Source: Candidatus Heimdallarchaeota archaeon B3_Heim
GTDB taxonomy: Archaea > Asgardarchaeota > Heimdallarchaeia > Hodarchaeales > Hodarchaeaceae
DNA length: 32,000 nt
Assembly: GCA_003144275.1 (NCBI GenBank)
Contig: NJBF01000020.1
Span: forward strand, 43,255-75,254
Reading direction: 5' to 3'
The stretch's first letter is position 1; every line of letters starts with the position of its first letter. The notes under the pieces are model-generated. The model was not told where the DNA came from and did no database searches. It saw nothing but the letters and a program-made list of their open reading frames with translations. The position numbers were made by a program, and so were the translations under genes. Below are positions 9,164 through 28,794 of the stretch, in pieces.

Positions 9164-10261
9164 CTATTCCTCTAAAGGAGTCAATTTTCGTAATTTAGAT
9201 AATTTTCGGGTTCTGAAAGATTCCCAGGGCGTATTCATTAAAATTTCCCAATTTAAGTAGCATGAACAAATTTCTGAGAAATTTTCTGGTAGCTTTTCTC
9301 TTTGGACAGCTTTTTCAATCAGCTTAAGTACAATTTTATCACATTTTCCACAATTGTGAGCTCCTCGTTCTTTACCTGCGGCTGTGGGGTCACAAATAAT
9401 TTTTATATTAGGAGCAATCTCATTAGCGATCTTAATCAGATGAAGTACAGTCCATAACCAAGGAGGTTGATATTCATCCTTTCTAAAAAGTTCGTAGATC
9501 AACGTCCCATTCTGAATATTACATGGATTTATTGAGATAACATCTGTTCCCATTTGTTTCGCATCGAAAACAGTCTTAATGGAATCTCTCAATGCTTCTT
9601 GTTCACTAAGAAACGGAGGTTTAATAAAAACGTAACTTTTAACTTCAACACCTATTGGTTGTAAATATTTTAGACTAGATTCGTAATCTTCTAGGGTTGT
9701 CCCCTTATTCCAGCAATCTAGTAATATTGCGTTGTTAGAGCTCTCTAAACCAATACCAATTTCTAATTTGATTTCTGAAAGACGTTTGAGAATTCCTTCA
9801 ATGGTTGTTTTCTCTTTTAAAATGAATTCTGGTCTACATTCGACAGATAATTTAATTATCTGCCCAGAACTTTTAATAAGATCTATAATGGTCTTTCTTA
9901 ATTCCTCTGGAACATCGTTCTTATCAAAAAAGCTCCCCGAATTGAAAATCTGTAACTCAAGTGGTTTATTATATTTAGTTTCAATTATTAATCTTCTTAA
10001 TTCATCTTCAATCTTTGTGACTGGGATTTGATTCTCTCTTGAGGAATCATTGACATATCCACAAACTGAGCATCCTCCATTGTCCGATAAAGCCCAACTA
10101 CATCCCTTGGATGGGATTACTATGGTCACGGTGATATAATCCTCTTTTTCTGACACACTACTCCATATTTTGGAATGAGAGGTATCTGACACCTGAGTAA
10201 GGTACTTGTGACGAATTTCTTGAATTCTGTCCGAAATAAGAGGATTGACTTGTTTATGCAT
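9164..10261 (-). CDS. raSEA: Archaeosine biosynthesis radical SAM protein RaSEA
   Basis: KGCSWALSDNGGCSVCGY extended cluster motif, FNSGSFFD, EIGIGLES, YVFIKPPFLSE, YQPPWLW, RGAHNCGKCD; overlaps arcS by 8 nt. Confidence 0.9.
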   Translation of the reverse strand: MHKQVNPLISDRIQEIRHKYLTQVSDTSHSKIWSSVSEKEDYITVTIVIPSKGCSWALSDNGGCSVCGYVNDSSRENQIPVTKIEDELRRLIIETKYNKPLELQIFNSGSFFDKNDVPEELRKTIIDLIKSSGQIIKLSVECRPEFILKEKTTIEGILKRLSEIKLEIGIGLESSNNAILLDCWNKGTTLEDYESSLKYLQPIGVEVKSYVFIKPPFLSEQEALRDSIKTVFDAKQMGTDVISINPCNIQNGTLIYELFRKDEYQPPWLWTVLHLIKIANEIAPNIKIICDPTAAGKERGAHNCGKCDKIVLKLIEKAVQREKLPENFSEICSCYLNWEILMNTPWESFRTRKLSKLRKLTPLEE

Positions 10262-12170
10262 TTTCTTTCACCTTCTGACGAATTTTTACACCTAATCCCC
10301 GAGGCATGTCGACTAATAGCTTCCCTGGAAGATAAGCGACTCCTGTAGCCATGAGTTCTTCATTTTCATTAACTACTATCACTTCATCATTTATCCTGAT
10401 TTCATGATCAGCCTGTCTAATGGCATTGGCAAATATTGTAGTTCCCCTTATACTTTCCCCATCAAATCTCACTATATTTTTCGATGTGCCAATCATACGT
10501 CTTGCAGCTTCTAGTGATAACGTTAAAAAGCCAGTAGAGGACCGAAAAGTCAATAGATGCTTACCAGCAAGTTGAATTCGGATACCGAGTTCTTTATATC
10601 CTTGAAGTCTTACATTTTCAGGGATTAGTAACTTTCCTACTCCAAATCCAAATTGATAATCGGCGACTACTCGTAAAAAATCTAGGAGCTTATTTCTCTT
10701 TGGAATTGTTTTTATTATTAGTTTTTCAGTGAGGAGATGTCTAAACTGATATAAACTTTCTTTTGAGGTTAGAGCTGGGACATCATCATCTATAATGTGA
10801 ACAACTCTGTCTAAATTCTTGCAAACATCAACAAGCACTCTTTTTTCCGTTCCTTTTACATATCCCAAAAGTTGAATAGTAGTTGGGCAGTTTTTCAGAA
10901 AATTTTCAAGATCCTCAGCAAGTTGTTCTCGTTCTAGACTACTCCAATCTCCAGTAACTGGTATATCGTAATGCGCAGCGGGGTATGTATATTCTAACTC
11001 TCTGGGGACAATTCCTAGCGGACTTGTGAGAATAATCTCTGCAAGAGAGTGGCGTCGACTTTTCAGAGTTCTTCGAATAGCACTTTGGAAAGCACGATGT
11101 GATTTCGATTGAGAGTAGGGTTTCCTTGCGGAACATGGAAGGAAAACAATACCTTGTATATGAGAAGCTAGTCGATATCTATCTCTTACCCTTTCTCTAA
11201 AGCGTTTAACCTCTGGTCTAGAAAAATCAGTTTCATCTGTACAGTAAAGTGATTTTGCCCCATAAATTGTTGTTCCTTGATCTAGCGGTATTTGCTTGTC
11301 AATCATTCGGAGCAATGTCTTCTGGGGGGGATATGAATTTGCGTATATTCGGACTAAATCACGTAATTTACCTGATTTAAGAGCAGATTTTATACGATTT
11401 ATTACGAGTTTATAATCCTCCGCATTATTATCCATTTCCAATATATTACCTCCGTTTGTAAGTGTAGAGAGGAAAGTAAAATCAAATAAATCAATACCCA
11501 GATAGGTCAGGATGGGAAAAAATGAAGAGGGTACTCCAGGTGCGTATAGCATAACATCAGGCGTAATAATTTCTTTTATTGACGATAAATATTGCAATAG
11601 AAATTTCGGATGGTTCAGTAATGACGAAATATCTCCTAAACTAATGATTCCAACTTTAAAAGGGATGAGTTCTTTTAAAGATTCAGCTAGATTAGATCTA
11701 AATGGGATATTAACCATAAACTTGGACTGGAGAATACTAGTTATTGAGATTAAACGTTTAATGGTTGAAATATATTCATTAATGTGATCTAAATAGATTT
11801 CAGGTAAATCCCAAGGAATTAAATGGAAAAACTCGTCTCGAGATACCAATGATTGGAAGATCTCGGGAAATAAATCTTCTATTCTAGTCAAATTAGACAA
11901 AGATTTCCCCTGCATCTGTAAAGATGAATATAGAATACATGTGGGAAATGATGATAATTCTGGTTGTTGATGCTGTGATTGGAAAAAAGTCTCAAGATTT
12001 GATTTGCTTAGAATTTTTTTTAATTTATATGAGTCTTGATTTTCAATTGGAGATAAGTCATCTTCTCTTCTCATCTGAAGATTAAGAAACGTAGGTGTTT
12101 CATAAGGTCGTCCCAATAGAACATTCCCAAGTCTCCCCAATCCCTCAAATTTTCGTATTTCAAATGACAT
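10254..12170 (-). CDS. arcS: Archaeosine synthase subunit ArcS (degenerate TGT-like + DUF5591 + PUA domain)
   Basis: FLPCSARKPYSQSKSH, LTSPLGIVPRELEYTYPAAHYDIPVTGDW, C-terminal PUA (ADHEIRINDEVIV...GLGVKIR). Confidence 0.92.
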   Translation of the reverse strand: MSFEIRKFEGLGRLGNVLLGRPYETPTFLNLQMRREDDLSPIENQDSYKLKKILSKSNLETFFQSQHQQPELSSFPTCILYSSLQMQGKSLSNLTRIEDLFPEIFQSLVSRDEFFHLIPWDLPEIYLDHINEYISTIKRLISITSILQSKFMVNIPFRSNLAESLKELIPFKVGIISLGDISSLLNHPKFLLQYLSSIKEIITPDVMLYAPGVPSSFFPILTYLGIDLFDFTFLSTLTNGGNILEMDNNAEDYKLVINRIKSALKSGKLRDLVRIYANSYPPQKTLLRMIDKQIPLDQGTTIYGAKSLYCTDETDFSRPEVKRFRERVRDRYRLASHIQGIVFLPCSARKPYSQSKSHRAFQSAIRRTLKSRRHSLAEIILTSPLGIVPRELEYTYPAAHYDIPVTGDWSSLEREQLAEDLENFLKNCPTTIQLLGYVKGTEKRVLVDVCKNLDRVVHIIDDDVPALTSKESLYQFRHLLTEKLIIKTIPKRNKLLDFLRVVADYQFGFGVGKLLIPENVRLQGYKELGIRIQLAGKHLLTFRSSTGFLTLSLEAARRMIGTSKNIVRFDGESIRGTTIFANAIRQADHEIRINDEVIVVNENEELMATGVAYLPGKLLVDMPRGLGVKIRQKVKENA

Positions 12171-13923: not shown

Positions 13924-14559
13924 TTATTTAGAAATAGGATTAATAGCTTCATTTGTTTGGTAACGTTCATAAACTTTTTCAACATAACCAAACTCTTCAA
14001 TTAGTTCATGAATTCTTGTCGATTCAATATAGATTTCAGAGGTCCATAAAATCAAGTACGCAGTAATCATAGGCAATTGAGGGGTAACTGATTCCTGTAT
14101 TTCAAATAGGATCTGTTTACGTAGAGCGAGCTCTGTTTCATACATATCAATTATTTCTCGAATGGTATTTTCAGCTTGATCTATAATCTCTAAATCATGA
14201 GGCCATTCATTATTATCTTTTACTGCTCGATTTTTCGCTGGTTGAAGAATATCACAACGAAAGCTCTGTTCTATTTTTCTCATCTCGCGAATTACATCTT
14301 TAAAATGAGTTAAATAAGCATTCAATTCGGTGATATGCCTATTGATAGATTCTGCGAGATTATAAGCTAGTCTGCCCTGAACGTCATCAAACTTAGTCTT
14401 TATTACTTCGGAAAAGACATCTGATCTTTGAGTCAGGTTAAATCGTGATAAGATATTGAGTACCATGTTTACAGTTCGTAACGACTGGCCTTGAACGGTG
14501 GTCCACTTTTTTTGAGAGATTTGTAACCTCTTTTTAAAGACCCGAATGCTCTGACTCAT
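13924..14559 (-). CDS. Hypothetical all-helical protein, CINP/C1orf109-like
   Basis: MYETELALRKQIL...AYLILWTSEIYIES resembles human CINP C-terminus as I recall it (MYRKELLLKRTVA...SYLSMWLHQPYVES); KFDDVQGRL resembles C1orf109 AFPDLKERL. Confidence 0.6.
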   Translation of the reverse strand: MSQSIRVFKKRLQISQKKWTTVQGQSLRTVNMVLNILSRFNLTQRSDVFSEVIKTKFDDVQGRLAYNLAESINRHITELNAYLTHFKDVIREMRKIEQSFRCDILQPAKNRAVKDNNEWPHDLEIIDQAENTIREIIDMYETELALRKQILFEIQESVTPQLPMITAYLILWTSEIYIESTRIHELIEEFGYVEKVYERYQTNEAINPISK

Positions 14560-14671: not shown

Positions 14672-14861
14672 GATTGAGGCACAAAATAATTCCGTTCTGA
14701 AAGACTTACCCAAATGGGACTGATAAGAATAATCAAGAAGAATTATTCGAAACAACCGTTGGAGCTGTTCTTCCTGATTCATCGACGCGTGCCTGCTCTG
14801 ATGCAGGTCTTACCACCTCTCCACAGACATTTAAGGTCTCCGCAGAACTCTCGGCGACCGG
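14672..14861 (-). ncRNA. Putative omega-RNA (reRNA): scaffold ~14861-14692 plus ~20-nt guide 14691-14672
   Basis: GC-rich hairpins at the tnpB 3' end (CCTGC-N6-GCAGG 14792-14807; CCG...CGG 14840-14854; GAACAGC...GTTGTTT on minus). TnpB omega-RNAs are established to derive from the right end with the guide from flanking DNA. Confidence 0.6.
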
Positions 14862-16034
14862 AAAGAGTAGGAACTGATAGATAGTATAATAATTAGCAAC
14901 ATTACGGGCAGCGTTCTGATCACGATCTAATGCCAACCCGCATAACGGGCAATGAAAAATCCGATCAGCTAACGTCAGATCACGACGGTAATAAAGGCAA
15001 TTCGAGCATAATTTCGAGGAAGGAAACCAGCGATCGATCTCAATCACCTTAGAGCCATATAAGGGCGCCTTATATGCGAGGAAACGCTGAAACAGACCAT
15101 GTGAAAGATCGGCCCAATATTTACTCAGCTTCTTATTTTGCATTAATCCTTTGACATGTAAATCCTCGGTAACTATCACGCTGTGGTTTTTAGCCAGATA
15201 AGTTGAGGTCTGATGCAAAAAATTATGCCTTTGGTTGGTGATTCGACGATAGAATCGCGCTAAGCGGAGGGCAGACTTCCGTTTATTATTTGAGACGTTC
15301 TGTTTCCGAGAATGAACTTTTGATAATCGATCCTGTTTTCGAGCTTGACGGAGGAGGAATTTGGGACGAGTGATAGGTATTCCCGAAGATAACGCTGTAA
15401 AGACGGATAAGCCTTTATCCAGGGCAATAATTGGGCCATCGTTTGGGTTACAATCTGGTTGTACCTCTTTTACCGTAAGAGCCACATACCAGCGATCCGC
15501 AGTCCGAGAAACCGTGACACTCAGTATCCGTGCTGATACAGGTAAATTTGGCCTTTCTTTTAACCGTAATTTACCTAAGCGAGGTAATTGCACCTGTTTT
15601 ACCTTTTGAAAAAGATGAATCACTCCAGTCAATCGAAAGCTGTCCTTACACTTGCCTTTTTTCTTGAAAATGGGTAAGCCGATATAACGGGTGGTTTGCT
15701 TCCGTTTTATTTGTTGATGATTGGTGAAGAAATTCTGATAGCCACGATCTAAGTCGCGGAGTGCCTCTTGCGGGACACATTTCGAAACCTCATACATCCA
15801 AGGAAAATCTGTTAGTTTCAAGCGATTTAATTCTTTATGCTGTTTCATAGCATCGGTATAGCGAGCAGCACCTGCTCGCGTTCGATAACGCGATTTCCGA
15901 TTGGCTAATCCCCAGTTCCAGGCAAATCGTGATATACCTGCATATTTGGTCAGTAGCGTCCGTTCTTTGTTATTCACTGTTAATTCGTACTTGTATCCTC
16001 GTGTACGGAGCATCCCTGACCATCCTTACTTAGA
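14692..16034 (-). mobile_element. Non-autonomous IS607-type (TnpB-only) element; right end at 14692, left end uncertain
   Basis: tnpB ORF with higher GC than host; minus-strand 3' end TTTGGGTAAGTCTTTCAGAACGG resembles IS607-family right ends ending in GG; no tnpA ORF upstream; left-end candidates follow TGGG (16038-16035) or TAGG (~16089). Confidence 0.65.
14733..16013 (-). CDS. tnpB: RNA-guided endonuclease TnpB (IS200/IS605/IS607 superfamily)
   Basis: N-terminal GYKYEL...AGISRFAWNWGL, RuvC-I IALDKGL, RuvC-II VTEDLHV, Zn finger CSNC...CPLC, RuvC-III DRDQNAARN; C-tail AESSAETLNVCGE typical of overlap with omega-RNA. Confidence 0.96.
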   Translation of the reverse strand: MLRTRGYKYELTVNNKERTLLTKYAGISRFAWNWGLANRKSRYRTRAGAARYTDAMKQHKELNRLKLTDFPWMYEVSKCVPQEALRDLDRGYQNFFTNHQQIKRKQTTRYIGLPIFKKKGKCKDSFRLTGVIHLFQKVKQVQLPRLGKLRLKERPNLPVSARILSVTVSRTADRWYVALTVKEVQPDCNPNDGPIIALDKGLSVFTALSSGIPITRPKFLLRQARKQDRLSKVHSRKQNVSNNKRKSALRLARFYRRITNQRHNFLHQTSTYLAKNHSVIVTEDLHVKGLMQNKKLSKYWADLSHGLFQRFLAYKAPLYGSKVIEIDRWFPSSKLCSNCLYYRRDLTLADRIFHCPLCGLALDRDQNAARNVANYYTIYQFLLFPVAESSAETLNVCGEVVRPASEQARVDESGRTAPTVVSNNSS

Positions 16035-16458: not shown

Positions 16459-18615
16459 GTGAGATGTTTGGCTAAAACGTACCAGGTCTTATTATGGACA
16501 CTACTACTGGCATTTTCTTACAGCGTTGATAATTCAGCTAATATTACTGACAGTATAGCCGCTTTCTCTGTTACTTCATACTCTACCAGCGCTGATTTTA
16601 CCAATTTTACCATTATTCAATCAGGAATTTCTCAGGAAGGCGTTTTTTCAAGTGATAATGATAATAGCACTCATTACTGGAAACTCGAGAATGTAAATCA
16701 AAGTCAAGTTGTATATCTTTCTCTCTCTCCTCACAATGGTAATGATAAAGATGATTTGAATGTGGAATTATTTCGCCCGTCAGGTGAAAGCTATTCACAA
16801 ATCCTTGAACCTACAGTGGGTTCTACTGATTATCTTGCTTCGTGGTTAGCAAACGAATTTGGTGATTGGATTATCCAGGTTAACGATACTAGTCAATCAA
16901 ATTTTACCTACACGATGTTAGTGGTCATTCCGACGTCTGCATACAGTGAAAATTCTGCAATATTAGTTAATGAGACCCCAACTATAGCAAATTTCACTAT
17001 TAGCCACGAAAGCCATTATTGGCAAGTATTATTAGAAGAAAATCAAGTTGGAACAATAAATCTGAAGGAAATCACGCCAACTATCCTACGAGTGTCTAAA
17101 ATTACAATTTATCGTGCACAAAATCCTCTAAACCCGATTCTTCTACCAAGTGACATCTTTCAAAGCAAATATAATTACTCTTGGAATGCACCTGCTACTG
17201 ATACGTATTTTGTGGAAATTACTCATAAAGCAGAGAAAAGCTATCCAATCGGGCAGTATAATGTTTCTTTCACTGCTGAAACAGCTGGATACGATTTTAA
17301 AACTGCACTAGAGATACCATATAATCAAACTTTCACTGTCAACGTAGATCAGGGATTTATTCCTAGAAAACGCTATTATTTTACGTTTAAAGTCAACGTA
17401 AGCCGAACATTAGTGGACATCCGTGTATTTGAATTGAATACAACAACTTCTACAATATTGGATTATGCAATTGTCGAGATCTTCGATGAAGGTCGCCAAT
17501 CGCCAAAACTAGCCATACGTGAGGAGGAAGAAGATAGGGACGGTCAAATTAATATTTCAGAGAAGCTTGATACTGGAATTTATTATTTAAGAGTTACGCC
17601 AGAATCCAATGCAGTTGGTACTTTTCAAATATTCTTGGAATATCGTTTACCACAGCCTTTTGTTTGGAATGTTCTTGCGATCCTTCTAACAATTAGTACA
17701 GTTATAGTATTTCCAGTCTATCTAATTTATCTTGATTCAAAAGGGAAATGGTACCGTGTAAGTCAATGGACTGTTTCTAGTTCTATCCAAAATGCCTACA
17801 AAATCTTTAGAAACAGTTTTAGAGGAATTTATAATATCAAGGAAGTACCAAGTGACTCTATCTTAATTCACATTGCAAGTATTCCATTTCGAACATATGC
17901 TATTCTAAATTTTGTTGAATCTTCTGAAAATGAAACATTGATTTTTTCAAAACGTATCAACCGTAAATATGAGTGGGGGATCTATGTTCTTGTAGGATTA
18001 TCTGTATTTGATGCACTAAATATTGGGGCCTATCTTTTATTCTCAGTACAATTTCTCCCACTATATTTTGCCAATCTGACTTCTTTGATTTTAATTTTAG
18101 CTATTCCAACAATTTCACTATTAATAATTGTATTATTCACCAATGGATCTTCATATATGACTTACAGCCAAGTTTATAATCGAATCTCGTATATAATACA
18201 AAATTTTGAGGATTCAGAAGAAAATACAATGTCCTCCTTAAGTATGGATCCAATCCAAGCTGCTAAAAGTGTAAACTATGTGAGAGTCCTTTGGAATCAA
18301 GCAAGACATGCCTTTAAAAATCAAAATTACGAACTCTTCGTCATCAAAGCCGATGCAGCAGTGAAAAATCTCCTATCTACAAGATACTTACAAATATGCC
18401 CCATAAATTCCCAAACAAAAGCTGATTTTCAAACCCAAGTGGTAGAATTAAGGAAACGTGGATTTGACTTACCTAATGAAAAAAAAATAGCACATTTCAG
18501 GAACCTTCGGAATAGGATAGTTCATTCATCAGTTACCTTGGGTGAAAAGGAATCGGTTGATTGTTTCGCTTACTATTCGACGTTCATCACTCGATTGGGT
18601 CTTCGACCCACATAA
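16459..18615 (+). CDS. Predicted membrane receptor: signal peptide, 3 PPC-like beta-sandwich ectodomains, 3 TM helices, cytoplasmic HEPN domain
   Basis: Hydrophobic N-terminus; three repeats of the H/YYW/F...DLNVELF...G.Y/W.I.V pattern; TM ~aa402-425, ~507-530, ~537-560; C-terminal FRNLRNRIVHS (R684-x4-H689) within HEPN-like helices. Confidence 0.72.
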   Translation: MRCLAKTYQVLLWTLLLAFSYSVDNSANITDSIAAFSVTSYSTSADFTNFTIIQSGISQEGVFSSDNDNSTHYWKLENVNQSQVVYLSLSPHNGNDKDDLNVELFRPSGESYSQILEPTVGSTDYLASWLANEFGDWIIQVNDTSQSNFTYTMLVVIPTSAYSENSAILVNETPTIANFTISHESHYWQVLLEENQVGTINLKEITPTILRVSKITIYRAQNPLNPILLPSDIFQSKYNYSWNAPATDTYFVEITHKAEKSYPIGQYNVSFTAETAGYDFKTALEIPYNQTFTVNVDQGFIPRKRYYFTFKVNVSRTLVDIRVFELNTTTSTILDYAIVEIFDEGRQSPKLAIREEEEDRDGQINISEKLDTGIYYLRVTPESNAVGTFQIFLEYRLPQPFVWNVLAILLTISTVIVFPVYLIYLDSKGKWYRVSQWTVSSSIQNAYKIFRNSFRGIYNIKEVPSDSILIHIASIPFRTYAILNFVESSENETLIFSKRINRKYEWGIYVLVGLSVFDALNIGAYLLFSVQFLPLYFANLTSLILILAIPTISLLIIVLFTNGSSYMTYSQVYNRISYIIQNFEDSEENTMSSLSMDPIQAAKSVNYVRVLWNQARHAFKNQNYELFVIKADAAVKNLLSTRYLQICPINSQTKADFQTQVVELRKRGFDLPNEKKIAHFRNLRNRIVHSSVTLGEKESVDCFAYYSTFITRLGLRPT

Positions 18616-18711: not shown

Positions 18712-19005
18712 ATGAAAAACCTGGATGAGTATTCCATGGCCAAAACTACTCTTGAAGAAGTACAACTTCCAAATTCATGCAAGAAAGTATACAGTGTAAT
18801 TCTTGAAGAGGGGCCTGTAAGTTCTAAGGAAATTGTAACACGAGTTTCTTGCTCTACTCGTTCTGTGCGATATGCTCTAAAAAGACTTCTAGATGATGAA
18901 TATGTCGAAAAACGACCTTGTCTGTCTGATATGAGACAAACATTATATTGTGCTAATATTAATAAAATTAAGGGTGAAATGTACTCTTTCAGAAAAGTAT
19001 TGTGA
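18712..19005 (+). CDS. Small archaeal winged-helix (MarR-like) transcription regulator
   Basis: LPNSCKKVYSVILEEGPVSSKEIV...TRSVRYALKRLLDDEYVEKRPCLSDMRQTLY matches the archaeal LPPSAKLV...RTVRYAL...DARQ family. Confidence 0.8.
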   Translation: MKNLDEYSMAKTTLEEVQLPNSCKKVYSVILEEGPVSSKEIVTRVSCSTRSVRYALKRLLDDEYVEKRPCLSDMRQTLYCANINKIKGEMYSFRKVL

Positions 19006-19064: not shown

Positions 19065-20303
19065 TTATCTTCCGCCAAGTTTTATTGAACTTTTTGCTAG
19101 CCTATGTTGTTCACCAATGAAACATTGTGTTTTAATCACTCGGCCATCAAAATGAGTCTGTTCCAGATCAAATTTAATTTCTATCTCAAACGAAAATGTT
19201 TCCCCCTCCGCGAGTGAGCTAATTAACTTTTCTTCGGTACCTTGGGAGATCTTAACTCCTTCAGGAATATCAATTTTTATGAGAGTGTTTTGTAAAGATA
19301 TTTTTCCAATATTCTCAACAATTACAGTCACCAAGTATTCCGAATCTTCCTCTATAGTTTCAGATTCCATGTTAAGATTTAAAGCAGGTTCAGCGTCTTT
19401 CGCTTCAATTAAAAATTTGTTTGAATTACTTGGATATTCACCTTCTTCATGTGGAATTCCGTAGGTTACAATTAGCGGGCCTATTTTCCATTTTCCAGGT
19501 AAATTTGGAATTAATGAATAATTAATGGTGTAATTTTCTCCTGTGCTGAGATTCAGTGGTAATTCGGGTGTGGTAGTTGAGATTAGTCTTCCATGAGATC
19601 CAGTTTTTAAGAAGATTGAATTGATCGAAATCGGTGCATGGGCTGTAAGAGTTGAAGAGAGCTGAAACTCCAAGCCTTTCTCTATTATCTGACTTTTATC
19701 CGCTACAAATAGCTCTGATTTGCAGAGAGAACATCGTTGCATAATTTCCTCTGCTTTTAGTTTGAGATTAGAGAATTCCTCTGGAATAGCAGTAGTAGGT
19801 AGTGATTCATGTTCTACGAAAGTATCTGAGGAATGTATAAGGGTCCACGTTGTAGCTAATGCTTTTCCATAGGAATCTGTGAAGGATTTTTTATTCGATT
19901 CATAGATGGAGGTTAATTTCTCAAAATTTTTCTCAGAAAGGTAGATTAAAAATTGAATGTATCTTAGTTCGTTTGGTGGAATATTGGACTTTTTACTCAA
20001 ACGAATCATCTGTAGAACACGATCAATGCTTTGAAATATCTCTTTAATCGGCTTATTATTTGCAGTTATTCTCAACATCTGTTGATAATACAATTCTGCA
20101 GCATTTTCATACAGTTTTGCTTTTTCTGCTGAAAGAGCAGCATTATCGAGAGCTAAAAGGTTCATTTCTTCCGTGTCAAATCGTAGATAAGCTTTTTGAA
20201 AAAATTTAAACGCGGATTTAAAATTATTCTTTTCAAAGGCAGTTTTTCCTTTTTCAAAATTTGTTTGAGGATCTACACCAAAGATTCGTCGAATGAAAGA
20301 CAT
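19065..20303 (-). CDS. TPR/SNAP-like helical repeats + two Ig-like beta-sandwich domains
   Basis: FEKGKTAFEKNNFKSAFKFFQKA and AKLYENAAELYYQ are TPR-like; YSLIPNLPGKWKIGPLIVTY and VTVIVENIGKISLQNTLIKIDIPEG...LAEGETFSFEIEI are Ig-like. Confidence 0.65.
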   Translation of the reverse strand: MSFIRRIFGVDPQTNFEKGKTAFEKNNFKSAFKFFQKAYLRFDTEEMNLLALDNAALSAEKAKLYENAAELYYQQMLRITANNKPIKEIFQSIDRVLQMIRLSKKSNIPPNELRYIQFLIYLSEKNFEKLTSIYESNKKSFTDSYGKALATTWTLIHSSDTFVEHESLPTTAIPEEFSNLKLKAEEIMQRCSLCKSELFVADKSQIIEKGLEFQLSSTLTAHAPISINSIFLKTGSHGRLISTTTPELPLNLSTGENYTINYSLIPNLPGKWKIGPLIVTYGIPHEEGEYPSNSNKFLIEAKDAEPALNLNMESETIEEDSEYLVTVIVENIGKISLQNTLIKIDIPEGVKISQGTEEKLISSLAEGETFSFEIEIKFDLEQTHFDGRVIKTQCFIGEQHRLAKSSIKLGGR

Positions 20304-20395: not shown

Positions 20396-20800
20396 CTAAG
20401 AAGATCGAATAAAATCAATTAATTCTCTTTCACGTTCTTTAAGAAGTGTAATTAGTTTTCTTCTCAATTTTTCTGCGTTCTTTTCAGTCTTACCCAAATC
20501 GTAAATTCTACGAGAAAGCTCTATGTCCCCTAATACGTAGTTGATCCATAAGGCAAGATCTGAACGGACAACTGGCCCATCTAACAAATGGGGCTCGAAA
20601 ATATCTTTGGTTGTTTCTCTAAAAACGTGAAATTGCGTTATTGTTGCTGGAATTTCTGATAAAGTAGATATTAATTCCGACAAATTGGTAATAGTTGCGA
20701 TTGTTCTCCCCTGATTTCCAATGAATCGAAATGCAAGTTCAGGACTGCATTTTTTGAACATATCTTTAGCAGACGTATGTGAGATTTCCATTCCAGCCAC
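20396..20800 (-). CDS. Stand-alone DUF5752-like protein
   Basis: FRF...ITNLSELISTL...QFHV...RSDLALWINYVLGDIELSRRI matches the DUF5752 pattern (FH...DF..W...LGD.EL). Confidence 0.65.
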   Translation of the reverse strand: MAGMEISHTSAKDMFKKCSPELAFRFIGNQGRTIATITNLSELISTLSEIPATITQFHVFRETTKDIFEPHLLDGPVVRSDLALWINYVLGDIELSRRIYDLGKTEKNAEKLRRKLITLLKERERELIDFIRSS

Positions 20801-27561: not shown

Positions 27562-28794
27562 ATGAATCCAGATGATAAAGGTGAAATAGACCCTGCTTTG
27601 CGTAAAATAATGGAAATTCCTGACGATCAAGAATTACCAGATGATGCATTGATTGATGTAATGCTGAGAGCACTAGAAAGTAACCAGCTATTATTAAGAT
27701 CATCCGCAGTTCATCAACTTATTGACCTTGGAAAAAGAAATCCTGCGATAGCCATACCTAAGATTTTGAAAGCTCTAGACCCTTCAGTTGATTATTGGAC
27801 TGTTCGATTCGGCGCAGTTGAAGCATTAGGAGAAATAGCAAATAGGGACACTATAAAACCCTTGATTAAGTACTTAAGAGAGGATGACGATCCAGATTTT
27901 CGTGCTATGGTAGCAAAACAACTTGGAGAAATGGGAGAAATAGCTAAAGAGGCAGGAACCGCTCTAATAGAGGCAATAGCTAATAAAGATAGCTCTGAAA
28001 TAAGAGAAAATGCAGCTCATACATTAGGAGTGTTATCAGTAGATCAAGCTGTAATTCCGTTAATCAATGCCTTGAAAATCGAAGATGACAATTATGCTAA
28101 ACGTGAAATCTGCTGGGCGTTGGGAGAGATTAACAATTCTTCTGCATTACCAAGCCTGTTAGCAAATCTTTCGGATAAAGATAAAGAAACTAGAGCAAAA
28201 GCTGTTGAGGCCCTAGGAAAAATTGAGGAAGCGGAGTCTATCATACCTATTTTGAAAACTACAAAAGATAGAGATACTGGCGTTCAAGCAAAAGCTATAG
28301 AAGCATTAAAGAAATTCTCTACAAAGAAAATCATGACCGAATTTAGTAAAGTTGCAGAAAATGATTTGTTTGTAGTTTTGCAACATTTTCAAGATTATCT
28401 CTTCAATATCGATAATGAAGAGGTAACAAAGAAAGTACTTGAAATCAAAGAACCCATACTAAACGCGTACAAAGAAAAAATGAACAAAATAAAATCGGAA
28501 CTCGAAAGCTGCAAGATATTTGTAGAGGAAAACTTTGAGAATATAGCTAATTTAGGAAAAAAAGACCTAAAAGAACTTGTTGAAAAGAAAATTCCGAAGG
28601 TTGAAGCTAAAGTGGCAAATGTTTCTCTTTATGAGTTTAGAAAACAGAAATGGTTAGAAAATGACCTCTATTTCGATATTGAAGAGATTTCTAGCCTCTA
28701 CAAGGAATCAGGAGTAATGCTTTCAGAGCTCCGAGATAGTGTTCAGGACCTACTCAAGAAAGGTTTCTTACCAACATTGCGTGGAAACGATTAG
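27562..28794 (+). CDS. HEAT-repeat (PBS lyase-like) protein with C-terminal helical/coiled region
   Basis: Repeats VRFGAVEALGEI, FRAMVAKQLGEM, IRENAAHTLGVL, AKREICWALGEI, TRAKAVEALGKI. Confidence 0.9.
   Translation: MNPDDKGEIDPALRKIMEIPDDQELPDDALIDVMLRALESNQLLLRSSAVHQLIDLGKRNPAIAIPKILKALDPSVDYWTVRFGAVEALGEIANRDTIKPLIKYLREDDDPDFRAMVAKQLGEMGEIAKEAGTALIEAIANKDSSEIRENAAHTLGVLSVDQAVIPLINALKIEDDNYAKREICWALGEINNSSALPSLLANLSDKDKETRAKAVEALGKIEEAESIIPILKTTKDRDTGVQAKAIEALKKFSTKKIMTEFSKVAENDLFVVLQHFQDYLFNIDNEEVTKKVLEIKEPILNAYKEKMNKIKSELESCKIFVEENFENIANLGKKDLKELVEKKIPKVEAKVANVSLYEFRKQKWLENDLYFDIEEISSLYKESGVMLSELRDSVQDLLKKGFLPTLRGND

Follow-up and report, generated by a model that had tools for sequence, protein, structure and literature searches.

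The gene at positions 16459 to 18615 raises the question of whether a single membrane protein of a Hodarchaeales archaeon could couple the cell surface directly to RNA cleavage. A previous sequence-only reading of the window (the whole stretch of 32,000 nucleotides analysed) had described a surface beta-sandwich sensor joined through the membrane to a cytoplasmic HEPN nuclease. The layout of the gene and of the encoded protein was determined as follows.

16459 to 18615, + strand: whole gene, GTG start, 718-aa membrane glycoprotein with a cytoplasmic HEPN domain.
16459 to 16530, + strand: signal peptide (residues 1-24), read from the sequence; helix 5-21 in the model.
16594 to 16938, + strand: ectodomain beta-sandwich 1 (residues 46-160), a PPC/CBD-like jelly roll.
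16951 to 17292, + strand: ectodomain beta-sandwich 2 (residues 165-278).
17311 to 17652, + strand: ectodomain beta-sandwich 3 (residues 285-398).
17665 to 17739, + strand: TM1 (residues 403-427), from hydropathy and model, with DSKGKWYR on the cytoplasmic side after it.
17746 to 17964, + strand: cytoplasmic beta-alpha-beta4 domain (residues 430-502), from the model, with no family match.
17965 to 18048, + strand: TM2 (residues 503-530), from hydropathy and model, preceded by SKRINRKYEW.
18076 to 18153, + strand: TM3 (residues 540-565), whose model helix runs into the cytoplasm to about residue 587.
18250 to 18612, + strand: HEPN domain (residues 598-718), comprising helix 1, helix 2, an insert helix, helix 3 and helix 4.
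18508 to 18525, + strand: Rx4H motif R684-N685-R-I-V-H689, at the end of helix 3.
18592 to 18606, + strand: invariant C-terminal tail R712-L-G-L-R716, in the predicted homodimer interface.

A TTG at 16468 is an equally possible alternative start, and it is the one used by the database gene call, which yields 715 aa. The signal peptide displayed an R/K n-region, the hydrophobic core VLLWTLLLAF and SYS ahead of the likely cut. Hydropathy analysis revealed three transmembrane segments, at about residues 403-427, 508-530 and 541-562, together with a short hydrophobic stretch at the N-terminus, as is usual for signal peptides. The AlphaFold2 model of the whole protein (pLDDT 77.9) contained beta-sandwiches at 50-156, 175-273 and 291-396, TM1 at 405-427, the beta-alpha-beta4 domain at 435-500, long helices at 503-528 and 540-587, and a helical domain at 598-712. 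The open reading frame, signal peptide, TM1, cytoplasmic alpha/beta domain and TM2-TM3 hairpin previously described were thus recovered from sequence, hydropathy and model, and the placement of R684 and H689 at 18508-18525 was exact. When the complete protein, its ectodomain and its cytoplasmic alpha/beta domain were scanned against Pfam and NCBIfam, no significant match was obtained; the family has neither a name nor a significant Pfam match. The cytoplasmic domain, of about 75 aa, showed 59% mean identity within the main clade. No fold is assigned to it, as its ESM Atlas neighbours were generic and belonged to mixed families (TM by query 0.69-0.77).

Residues 25-402 hold 14 N-x-S/T sequons, the same number as counted before, where 5.3 would be predicted from composition, and residues 586-718 hold none. 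In the family as a whole, the sequon density was 2.8-4.3 per 100 aa in the ectodomain of all members versus 0.11 per 100 aa in the HEPN domain, and beta-sandwich 1 carried a mean of 5.0 sequons per member. The flanks after TM1 and before TM2 are rich in K/R. Since sequons are enriched only N-terminally, positive charges lie at the cytoplasmic faces and three TM segments follow the signal peptide, the evidence is consistent with beta-sandwiches outside and a HEPN domain inside the cell, which was also the topology first suggested.

When the ectodomain was compared with known structures by Foldseek, the best match was the tandem collagen-binding domains s3a-s3b of ColG (PDB 5iku, E 4e-10), followed by the CUB domains of cubilin and neuropilin. 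In the ESM Atlas, PPC-domain clusters led both the feature and the structure lists. The likeness to PPC/CBD domains (PF04151; ColG) and to CUB jelly rolls lies in the tandem beta-sandwich fold, but the PPC profile (PF04151) gave no Pfam match to the ectodomain even at E up to 10, and the three repeats showed no significant mutual similarity (BLASTP, E 0.04-0.1). The three PPC-like repeats of the sequence-only reading therefore hold as structural repeats only. A search with the ectodomain alone returned members of the same family and one marginal match (E 7e-6, 29% coverage), and at this sensitivity no different output domain was found behind it.

The C-terminal domain has a HEPN fold, as had been proposed. 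A separate AlphaFold2 model of residues 585-718 (pLDDT 88.7) placed helices at 598-620, 624-646, 674-688 and 696-713 and the insert at 657-666, which is the four-helix layout with insert of the HEPN superfamily (Pfam clan CL0291). In a structural search with VIA-align against about 48,000 PDB representatives, ranks 1-16 were almost all HEPN (108-126 residues aligned), with Z scores of 8.4-11.8, on a scale where middling values arise often by chance for helical bundles. The matches included AF_0298, the HEPN domain of sacsin (second best), 4nqf, Csm6, TT1696, the AbiA HEPN domain, HI0074, HEPN toxins and AbiV. The same HEPN families topped the Foldseek list, though at E 0.1-1, and DUF4145 was the top structural match in the ESM Atlas (TM 0.66). 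Sequence profiles gave weaker signals. HEPN_RiboL-PSP matched 15 of 22 members below threshold (best E 2.3e-4), the window protein scoring 14.9 bits against a cut-off of 28.4. DUF4145 matched three of 22 weakly, and HEPN_LA2681 and HEPN_Cthe2314 were also among the weak matches. When the HEPN alignment was used as a profile against PDB sequences, no HEPN protein was retrieved, only chance matches to desaturases and SWR1. As no Pfam profile reached a curated HEPN threshold (best score below the gathering cut-off), the assignment is based on fold and motif.

In the published definition of the superfamily (PMC3710099), Rx4-6H closes helix 3, helices 2 and 3 are separated by an insert, and helix 2 carries, in many families, a conserved acidic residue near the motif. 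The Rx4H motif of the receptor falls where helix 674-688 ends, which matches this placement, and D632, an acidic residue in helix 2, is invariant in the alignment. When conservation of the R/H pair was checked, R684, N685 and H689 were found to be invariant in 22/22 aligned homologs, including a clade only about 27% identical overall. Remote relatives of this HEPN subtype sometimes have another residue in place of the His (R in P0090, K in P0096). In metagenomic proteins the same subtype also follows different N-terminal modules (LRR; zinc ribbons plus TM), which would be expected if it serves as an output module, and one metagenomic protein carrying it is labelled Lokiarchaeota.

The family was found in 23 of 24 Hodarchaeales genomes and in 0 of 59 genomes from other orders of the class; it is Hodarchaeales-specific and near-universal in the order. 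One copy is present in the window's own genome and the gene is single-copy in most genomes, two of the positive ones showing an additional short, partial match. The HEPN domain showed a mean pairwise identity of 0.71 and the ectodomains one of 0.32-0.40; in comparisons across the two family clades, the values were 0.55 and 0.17-0.26, respectively. The HEPN domain is under much stronger constraint than the ectodomain. In sequencing data, DNA runs from marine sediment and cold seeps held only small shares of the gene's sampled words, and one RNA-library run yielded two 151-nt contigs within the gene (17494-17644 and 17698-17846, 2-3 mismatches), at most a weak hint of transcription as such libraries can hold DNA. 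The literature search gave no paper combining Hodarchaeales and HEPN; an ESCRT survey in which a figure legend names HEPN and GOLD is not about this family.

In the window the gene is surrounded by genes for a CA109-like protein, TnpB, a MarR-like winged-helix protein and the two proteins listed here.

19065 to 20303, - strand: convergent 412-aa neighbour with a helical-repeat N-terminus and an Ig-like C-terminus, adjoining the receptor gene in both clades.
20396 to 20800, - strand: DUF5752 protein, co-conserved with the 412-aa gene beside the receptor gene.

The order Hsp70, DnaJ, radical SAM, ArcS-like, 472 aa, CA109-like, receptor, 412 aa, DUF5752 was observed in two relatives (L001 and L002), and the conserved surroundings of the receptor gene are housekeeping genes rather than a defence island. 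Within one genus, such synteny may reflect inertia rather than a functional link. Remote relatives are likewise located among housekeeping genes. The TnpB element that adjoins the gene in the window is absent at the same position in L001 and L002. On the same strand, only a 97-aa MarR/TrmB-type winged-helix protein is encoded close by, and it is not conserved at this place. The persistence of the 412-aa gene beside that of the receptor in both clades makes its product a candidate partner. MNT-HEPN (HepT-MntA) toxin-antitoxin systems have an adjacent minimal nucleotidyltransferase gene; in agreement with the earlier observation, no MNT or NTP-transferase gene was found in the window or beside the receptor gene in L001-L003. 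A search of PADLOC-DB 2.0 with the receptor, the HEPN domain and the neighbours gave no match, except for a weak winged-helix similarity of the 97-aa protein. A link to L-PSP/RidA, prompted by the weak RiboL-PSP-HEPN match and an L-PSP gene near the L003 homolog, was dropped because the two L-PSP genes of the window's genome are on other contigs.

The homodimer model of the HEPN domain reached an ipSAE of 0.45, versus 0.01 for the best control. Of the proteins solved as one-chain pairs, 20 of 30 attained this mark, as did one of 23 solved as single chains. At least 73% of contacts were common to the runs, with a partner pLDDT of at least 82. The interface comprised residues 598, 601-602, 605, 645-646, 663, 666-670 and 711-716, and contained the invariant Q645, G668, D670 and R712-R716; in the model the two chains thus meet at the RGFD loop and at the C-terminal RLGLR tail, which is invariant. 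R684 and H689 were absent from the confident contacts, and helix order would place them at the end of the bundle opposite to the predicted interface. The proposed dimer passed its controls, but the meeting of the two RxxxxH motifs was not borne out, the confident contacts lying at the other end, and the model did not reproduce the canonical face-to-face composite site in which two HEPN motifs come together. Whether R and H meet was judged from the contact list alone, and their absence was counted as uncertainty only.

The best explanation of these data, which is offered tentatively, could well be that a Hodarchaeales-specific membrane glycoprotein tethers a predicted catalytically competent HEPN endoribonuclease to the cytoplasmic side of the membrane, while its three PPC-like jelly rolls form a fast-evolving module outside the cell. 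The HEPN domain would cut RNA at the membrane without a metal ion, like other HEPN RNases, and the receptor would be a dimer held together close to the membrane by its invariant RLGLR tail and its RGFD loop. When the ectodomain meets a ligand or a surface, or clusters, the change would be relayed via TM1, the small cytoplasmic domain and the TM hairpin, and would switch the nuclease activity. One possible switch is that the membrane-distal R/H faces of neighbouring dimers are brought together. Given the near-universal occurrence of the gene in the order and its housekeeping synteny, the receptor is read as a physiological surface-to-RNA signalling or RNA-turnover device rather than as a mobile defence gene.

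Ire1 is a transmembrane protein with a sensor across the membrane and a cytoplasmic HEPN-superfamily RNase that is activated by oligomerisation. The receptor resembles it in having a putative sensor across the membrane from a predicted cytoplasmic RNase of the HEPN superfamily. In Ire1 and RNase L, a kinase or pseudokinase lies directly before the RNase, whereas the receptor has TM helices and the 75-aa beta-alpha-beta4 domain instead, and a Pfam scan of the complete protein, taken to E 10, gave no Pkinase match. Ire1 has one TM segment against three in the receptor, whose ectodomain displays PPC/CUB-like jelly rolls and not the Ire1 lumenal fold. KEN has been placed in the HEPN superfamily (PMC3710099); its Pfam family, Ribonuc_2-5A, gave no match and KEN was not among the best 50 structural matches, although KEN may still be a distant relative. 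The kinase-free Ire1-like description holds for the layout and for the missing kinase, but no KEN-specific similarity was seen and the ectodomain fold differs; the comparison is an analogy of layout only, not evidence of ancestry. A more specific version of the receptor reading, in which binding or clustering of the surface ectodomain switches on a HEPN RNase that cleaves specific cellular RNAs, is possible but on the unlikely side. It would make the protein a kinase-free receptor ribonuclease and a direct surface-to-RNA route, a functional Ire1 analogue of independent origin in the archaeal order closest to eukaryotes.

The family is undescribed, as had been claimed for the system, but the concept of a membrane-anchored HEPN sensor RNase is not new, as it was predicted in 2013 (PMC3710099). 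Three bacterial groups were predicted by Anantharaman, Makarova, Burroughs, Koonin and Aravind, namely a DUF4145-type group with a WP transmembrane helix, a single-TM group and a HEPN-2TM-zinc-ribbon group, and stimulus-dependent RNA cleavage at the inner membrane face was proposed with an explicit analogy to Ire1 (PMC3710099). The receptor shares with them a cytoplasmic HEPN domain with Rx4-6H, TM segments and possible external sensor parts, and its closest signals, in sequence and in structure, are likewise of the DUF4145 and RiboL-PSP kind. In contrast to these groups, it is archaeal (Hodarchaeales only) and near-universal in one order rather than sporadic; it has a glycosylated three-domain ectodomain of about 370 aa, three TM segments with an inserted cytoplasmic domain and a C-terminal HEPN domain ending in the invariant RLGLR, and no family member reaches a Pfam HEPN threshold. 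To our knowledge, none of the membrane-HEPN predictions of 2013 has so far been tested experimentally.

A constitutive membrane-localised RNase is a rather unlikely alternative. The HEPN domain would be active and ungated, the ectodomain would merely anchor or position it (e.g. at the envelope or protrusions), and RNAs near the membrane would be trimmed or degraded as housekeeping. The near-universal, mostly single-copy gene and its synteny fit this proposal, the extreme HEPN conservation suggests a conserved cellular substrate, and the predicted dimer, being built on invariant residues, requires no ligand. Against it, ungated HEPN RNases are usually toxic, and the known ones (HEPN toxins, Csm6, Ire1, RNase L) are restrained by partners or conformation. 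The R/H motifs are not juxtaposed in the dimer model, which better fits a resting state, and the conserved transmission module of three TM segments plus a domain would be elaborate for a mere anchor.

The HEPN bundle could instead be non-catalytic, which is given a similarly low probability: as a binding or oligomerisation module like those of Csx28, sacsin and MNT-associated HEPN domains, it would recruit a cytoplasmic partner, a nucleotide or RNA without cutting, and the protein as a whole would act as an adhesin or receptor at the surface, its tail serving as a scaffold. Csx28 (type VI-B CRISPR) is likewise a prokaryotic membrane-anchored protein with a cytoplasmic HEPN-like four-helix bundle; it has one TM helix and no ectodomain, and it forms an octameric pore through face-to-back contacts with its motif in a nuclease-inactive arrangement and no nuclease role. 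The location of the model interface at the tail and the RGFD loop and not at the R/H motif, the rank of sacsin among the structural matches, and the adjacent 412-aa cytoplasmic protein, which could be the partner, also point in this direction. However, the Csx28 motif is divergent whereas that of the receptor is canonical and invariant, and the retention of R, N, H and D632 across clades about 27% identical is the pattern of active HEPN nucleases.

An antiviral abortive-infection sensor, in which virus on the ectodomain would trigger indiscriminate RNA cleavage followed by dormancy or death, is improbable because the gene is near-universal, mostly single-copy and located in housekeeping synteny, has no PADLOC match, and has remote relatives that also lie among housekeeping genes, whereas defence genes are typically patchy and located in variable islands. 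The fast-evolving, heavily glycosylated ectodomain is what would be expected of a virus-targeted surface, HEPN domains occur widely in abortive-infection, toxin-antitoxin and CRISPR ancillary systems (PMC3710099), and a TnpB element lies beside the gene in the window, but that insertion is missing in relatives. The abortive-infection option of the sequence-only reading is therefore judged unlikely.

Prokaryotic signal transduction is known to run via phosphorylation, second messengers, proteolysis or DNA binding. We know of no demonstration of a receptor with RNA cleavage as its direct output, which has been predicted for bacteria. The present receptor may link the cell surface to RNA cleavage, and its family lends itself to a clean test: the gene is mostly single-copy and conserved order-wide, its catalytic motif is invariant, and the compact 120-aa output domain should be easy to express. 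Hodarchaeales are an archaeal order of close relatives of eukaryotes, so that the family bears on membrane-linked RNA control in such archaea; nothing indicates that Ire1 descends from it. If the kinase-free receptor RNase proved true, the membrane-HEPN sensors predicted in 2013 would have their first tested example. If the HEPN domain proved inactive, the family would still represent an unnamed, abundant, order-specific surface glycoprotein with a conserved cytoplasmic docking module.

The receptor gene proposed at 16459-18615 (+) proved to be a real open reading frame. With GTG as the start codon its product has 718 aa; the database entry (715 aa) starts at a TTG three codons downstream. Hydropathy analysis revealed three transmembrane (TM) segments, at about residues 403-427, 508-530 and 541-562, and a signal-peptide-like N-terminus with a short hydrophobic stretch after R/K. 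In residues 25-402, 14 N-x-S/T sequons were counted, the same number as in the sequence-only reading, against 5.3 predicted from composition; residues 586-718 held none. Across 22 family members, the number of sequons per 100 aa was 2.8-4.3 for the three ectodomain beta-sandwiches and 0.11 for the HEPN domain. K/R-rich flanks were found after TM1 (DSKGKWYR) and before TM2 (SKRINRKYEW). Together with the TM segments and the predicted signal peptide, these sequence features put the beta-sandwiches outside the cell and the small middle domain and the HEPN domain in the cytoplasm, which is the orientation that had been proposed.

The full-length protein was modelled with AlphaFold2 using the 22-sequence alignment (mean pLDDT 77.9). 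The model contained the following elements:

N-terminus: signal helix
Residues 50-156, 175-273 and 291-396: three beta-sandwiches
Residues 405-427: TM1
Residues 435-500: beta-alpha-beta4 domain
Residues 503-528: TM2
Residues 540-587: long TM3 helix
Residues 598-712: five-helix C-terminal domain

The top Foldseek match of this model was ColG, with its tandem collagen-binding domains (5iku, E 4e-10) from the PPC superfamily; it was followed by CUB-domain proteins and SID1/SIDT ectodomains. With residues 45-400, PPC-domain clusters headed both the feature and the structure searches of the ESM Atlas. Pfam gave no PPC match on the receptor, and sequence comparison of the three ectodomain domains showed no significant similarity to each other. 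As a description of the modelled structure, the earlier term "PPC-like repeats" is fair.

The HEPN domain modelled alone reached a pLDDT of 88.7. When the model was compared exhaustively against about 48,000 PDB representatives, ranks 1-16 were almost all HEPN domains (108-126 residues aligned), with Z-scores of 8.4-11.8 that helical bundles can reach by chance according to the tool's own warning, so that the weight lies on the consistency of the list. The matches included AF_0298, sacsin HEPN, 4nqf, Csm6 of two species, TT1696, the AbiA HEPN domain, HI0074, the HEPN toxins of MNT-HEPN pairs and AbiV. Foldseek returned the same families with weak E-values (0.1-1), and the best structural neighbour in the ESM Atlas was a DUF4145 cluster. 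Sequence profiles matched below threshold: HEPN_RiboL-PSP in 15 of 22 family members (best E 2.3e-4), and DUF4145, HEPN_LA2681 or HEPN_Cthe2314 in a few; none of the 22 reached a curated Pfam HEPN cut-off. In published HEPN anatomy, the Rx4-6H motif ends helix 3, an insert separates helices 2 and 3, and helix 2 carries a conserved acidic residue (PMC3710099). The model agrees on all three points, with R684-N-R-I-V-H689 closing helix 674-688, an additional helix at 657-666 between helices 2 and 3 and D632 in helix 2, invariant in the 22-sequence alignment. The C-terminal domain thus has, by structural modelling, a HEPN fold with canonical motif placement, as had been claimed.

A search of 5.8 billion proteins yielded 67 relatives of the receptor, most of about 715 aa. 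Every labelled one came from a MAG of Asgard archaea; most labels were Hodarchaeales or Heimdall-group and a few Thor- or Promethearchaeota. With the last 159 residues as query, HMMER run exhaustively over 1.84 billion cluster representatives gave no more than 31 clusters. The HEPN profile detected one copy in the source genome, a copy in 23 of 24 Hodarchaeales genomes and none in 59 genomes from other orders of the class, these counts being taken from related genomes that are not independent samples. The sole genome lacking it is about 80% complete, and two of the 24 showed an additional match that was short and partial. The relatives include a second clade, with about 35% identity to the receptor in the C-terminal half. 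One divergent Heimdall-group MAG (GCA_046759345.1) carries two paralogs (755 and 696 aa), located apart from each other (L003 and L015); downstream of the second come two uncharacterised genes and one for an Arf/Ras-type small GTPase.

Conservation was concentrated in the HEPN domain. Mean pairwise identity was 0.71 there versus 0.32-0.40 in the ectodomains, and 0.55 versus 0.17-0.26 between the two clades; by sequence, such a contrast is what a variable sensor joined to a constrained output would show. R684 and H689, whose conservation had been put forward as a check, were invariant in the 22 aligned sequences, as were N685, the RGFD loop and the C-terminal RLGLR.

In order to evaluate self-association, two copies of the HEPN domain were modelled together with a 22-row alignment. 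The ipSAE was 0.45, against 0.01 for the best control; of proteins solved as one-chain pairs 20 of 30 attained this mark, and of those solved as single chains 1 of 23. HEPN dimers being common among solved structures, resemblance to them may account for part of this result. The runs had at least 73% of contacts in common, with a partner pLDDT of at least 82. Confident contacts involved residues 598, 601-602, 605, 645-646, 663, 666-670 and 711-716; these lie where helix 1 begins, where helix 2 ends, in the RGFD loop and in the C-terminal tail. Invariant columns account for eight of these residues, and a tail placed in such an interface would make sense of the strong conservation at the extreme C-terminus. 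Judged by helix order, the modelled interface would lie at the membrane-proximal end of the bundle. The named contacts did not include R684 or H689, which close helix 3 at the opposite end of the bundle. Canonical active HEPN dimers are face-to-face, with both motifs lining the interface. The model hence supports self-association of the domain without displaying a composite active site, so that of the proposed dimer the pairing is supported and the meeting of the R/H motifs is not.

The genes around the receptor gene were annotated as follows:

9164-12170 (-): DUF5591 + TGT_C2 + PUA protein (638 aa), then radical SAM protein (365 aa), by domain annotation
13924-14559 (-): CA109-like (C1orf109-like ribosome biogenesis) protein, 211 aa (Pfam E 1.2e-10, above the curated cut-off)
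14733-16013 (-): TnpB gene with HTH_OrfB_IS605, OrfB_IS605 and Cas12f-like TNB domains
18712-19005 (+): MarR/TrmB-type winged-helix protein, 97 aa, 96 nt downstream of the receptor gene on the same strand
19065-20303 (-): 412-aa cytoplasmic protein with a helical-repeat N-terminus and a DUF11/CARDB-like Ig C-terminus
20396-20800 (-): DUF5752 protein, beside the 412-aa gene

On long contigs of two Hodarchaeales relatives (L001 and L002), the order is Hsp70, DnaJ, radical SAM, ArcS-like, a 472-aa protein, CA109-like, receptor, the opposite-strand 412-aa protein and DUF5752. The window has the same order apart from the TnpB insertion, a 43% G+C block in DNA of about 35% G+C between the CA109-like and receptor genes, which is absent from that site in both relatives. 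The CA109-like gene keeps its place beside the receptor gene in both. The first pair listed, which looks like archaeosine synthase ArcS and its radical-SAM partner, is also conserved in both. The winged-helix gene is present in L002 and absent from L001 and from L003 of the divergent clade, and is thus not an obligate partner. In that clade, of these neighbours only the 412-aa and DUF5752 genes stay with the receptor gene, an HflX GTPase gene lying between them (the encoded proteins share 23% and 37% identity with those of the window, respectively). SNAP accounts for 25% of the ESM Atlas cluster nearest to the helical repeat of the 412-aa protein. Because many Asgard archaea have a member of the 412-aa protein's family, this protein is no more than a candidate partner of the receptor. 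Elsewhere in the window, 27562-28794 (+) encodes a 410-aa HEAT/Armadillo-repeat protein (HEAT_2 E 3.9e-33).

It is quite possible, and tentatively preferred here, that the receptor is a HEPN endoribonuclease tethered to the membrane and controlled by the state of its ectodomain. The HEPN domain would cleave RNA at the membrane; speculatively, the tail-mediated dimer may be the resting unit, and clustering of dimers could pair the membrane-distal R/H faces, in analogy to Ire1, which needs assembly beyond a first dimer. Remote relatives among metagenomic proteins carry the same HEPN subtype as a C-terminal module behind leucine-rich repeats, zinc ribbons, or a zinc ribbon plus TM helices, the last labelled Lokiarchaeota (P0090, P0092, P0095, P0096; L012-L014). 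Three contigs were examined, those of P0090 and P0096 (both zinc-ribbon forms) and of the paralog P0085; in each the gene lies among housekeeping genes. The motif His is replaced by R or K in P0090 and P0096. Of the rival readings of the receptor, an ungated housekeeping RNase appears unlikely. A non-catalytic scaffold, or a Csx28-like use of the bundle, is similarly improbable. An abortive-infection sensor, as suggested earlier, is more doubtful still, because the gene is near-universal in the order, keeps a conserved gene neighbourhood and lacks any defence context: PADLOC gave no match for the receptor or its neighbours, and no known defence genes were found nearby. As previously stated, no MNT gene adjoins it in the window or in L001-L003. 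What the sequence-only reading had observed was thus confirmed, and its interpretation was partly supported, for fold, motif and topology and not for the motif-paired dimer.

The likeness to Ire1 and RNase L is one of layout only: Pfam scans revealed no kinase, as anticipated, and neither they nor the 50 best structural matches gave a KEN-specific signal, which leaves the Ire1-like claim as an analogy. The nearest described concept is the bacterial membrane-associated HEPN proteins predicted by Anantharaman et al. (2013; PMC3710099), who likened them to Ire1 and eukaryotic C6orf70. The receptor differs from these by its lineage, its large, putatively glycosylated ectodomain, its transmission module of three TM segments plus a domain, and its near-universal presence within one order. 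A literature search found no paper on the family. Two 151-nt contigs from a sediment metatranscriptomic (PolyA) library fall in the gene (17494-17644 and 17698-17846, 2-3 mismatches), a weak hint that it or a close relative is transcribed in situ. The receptor is a new form of the membrane HEPN system predicted earlier, and its cytoplasmic domain is readily testable.
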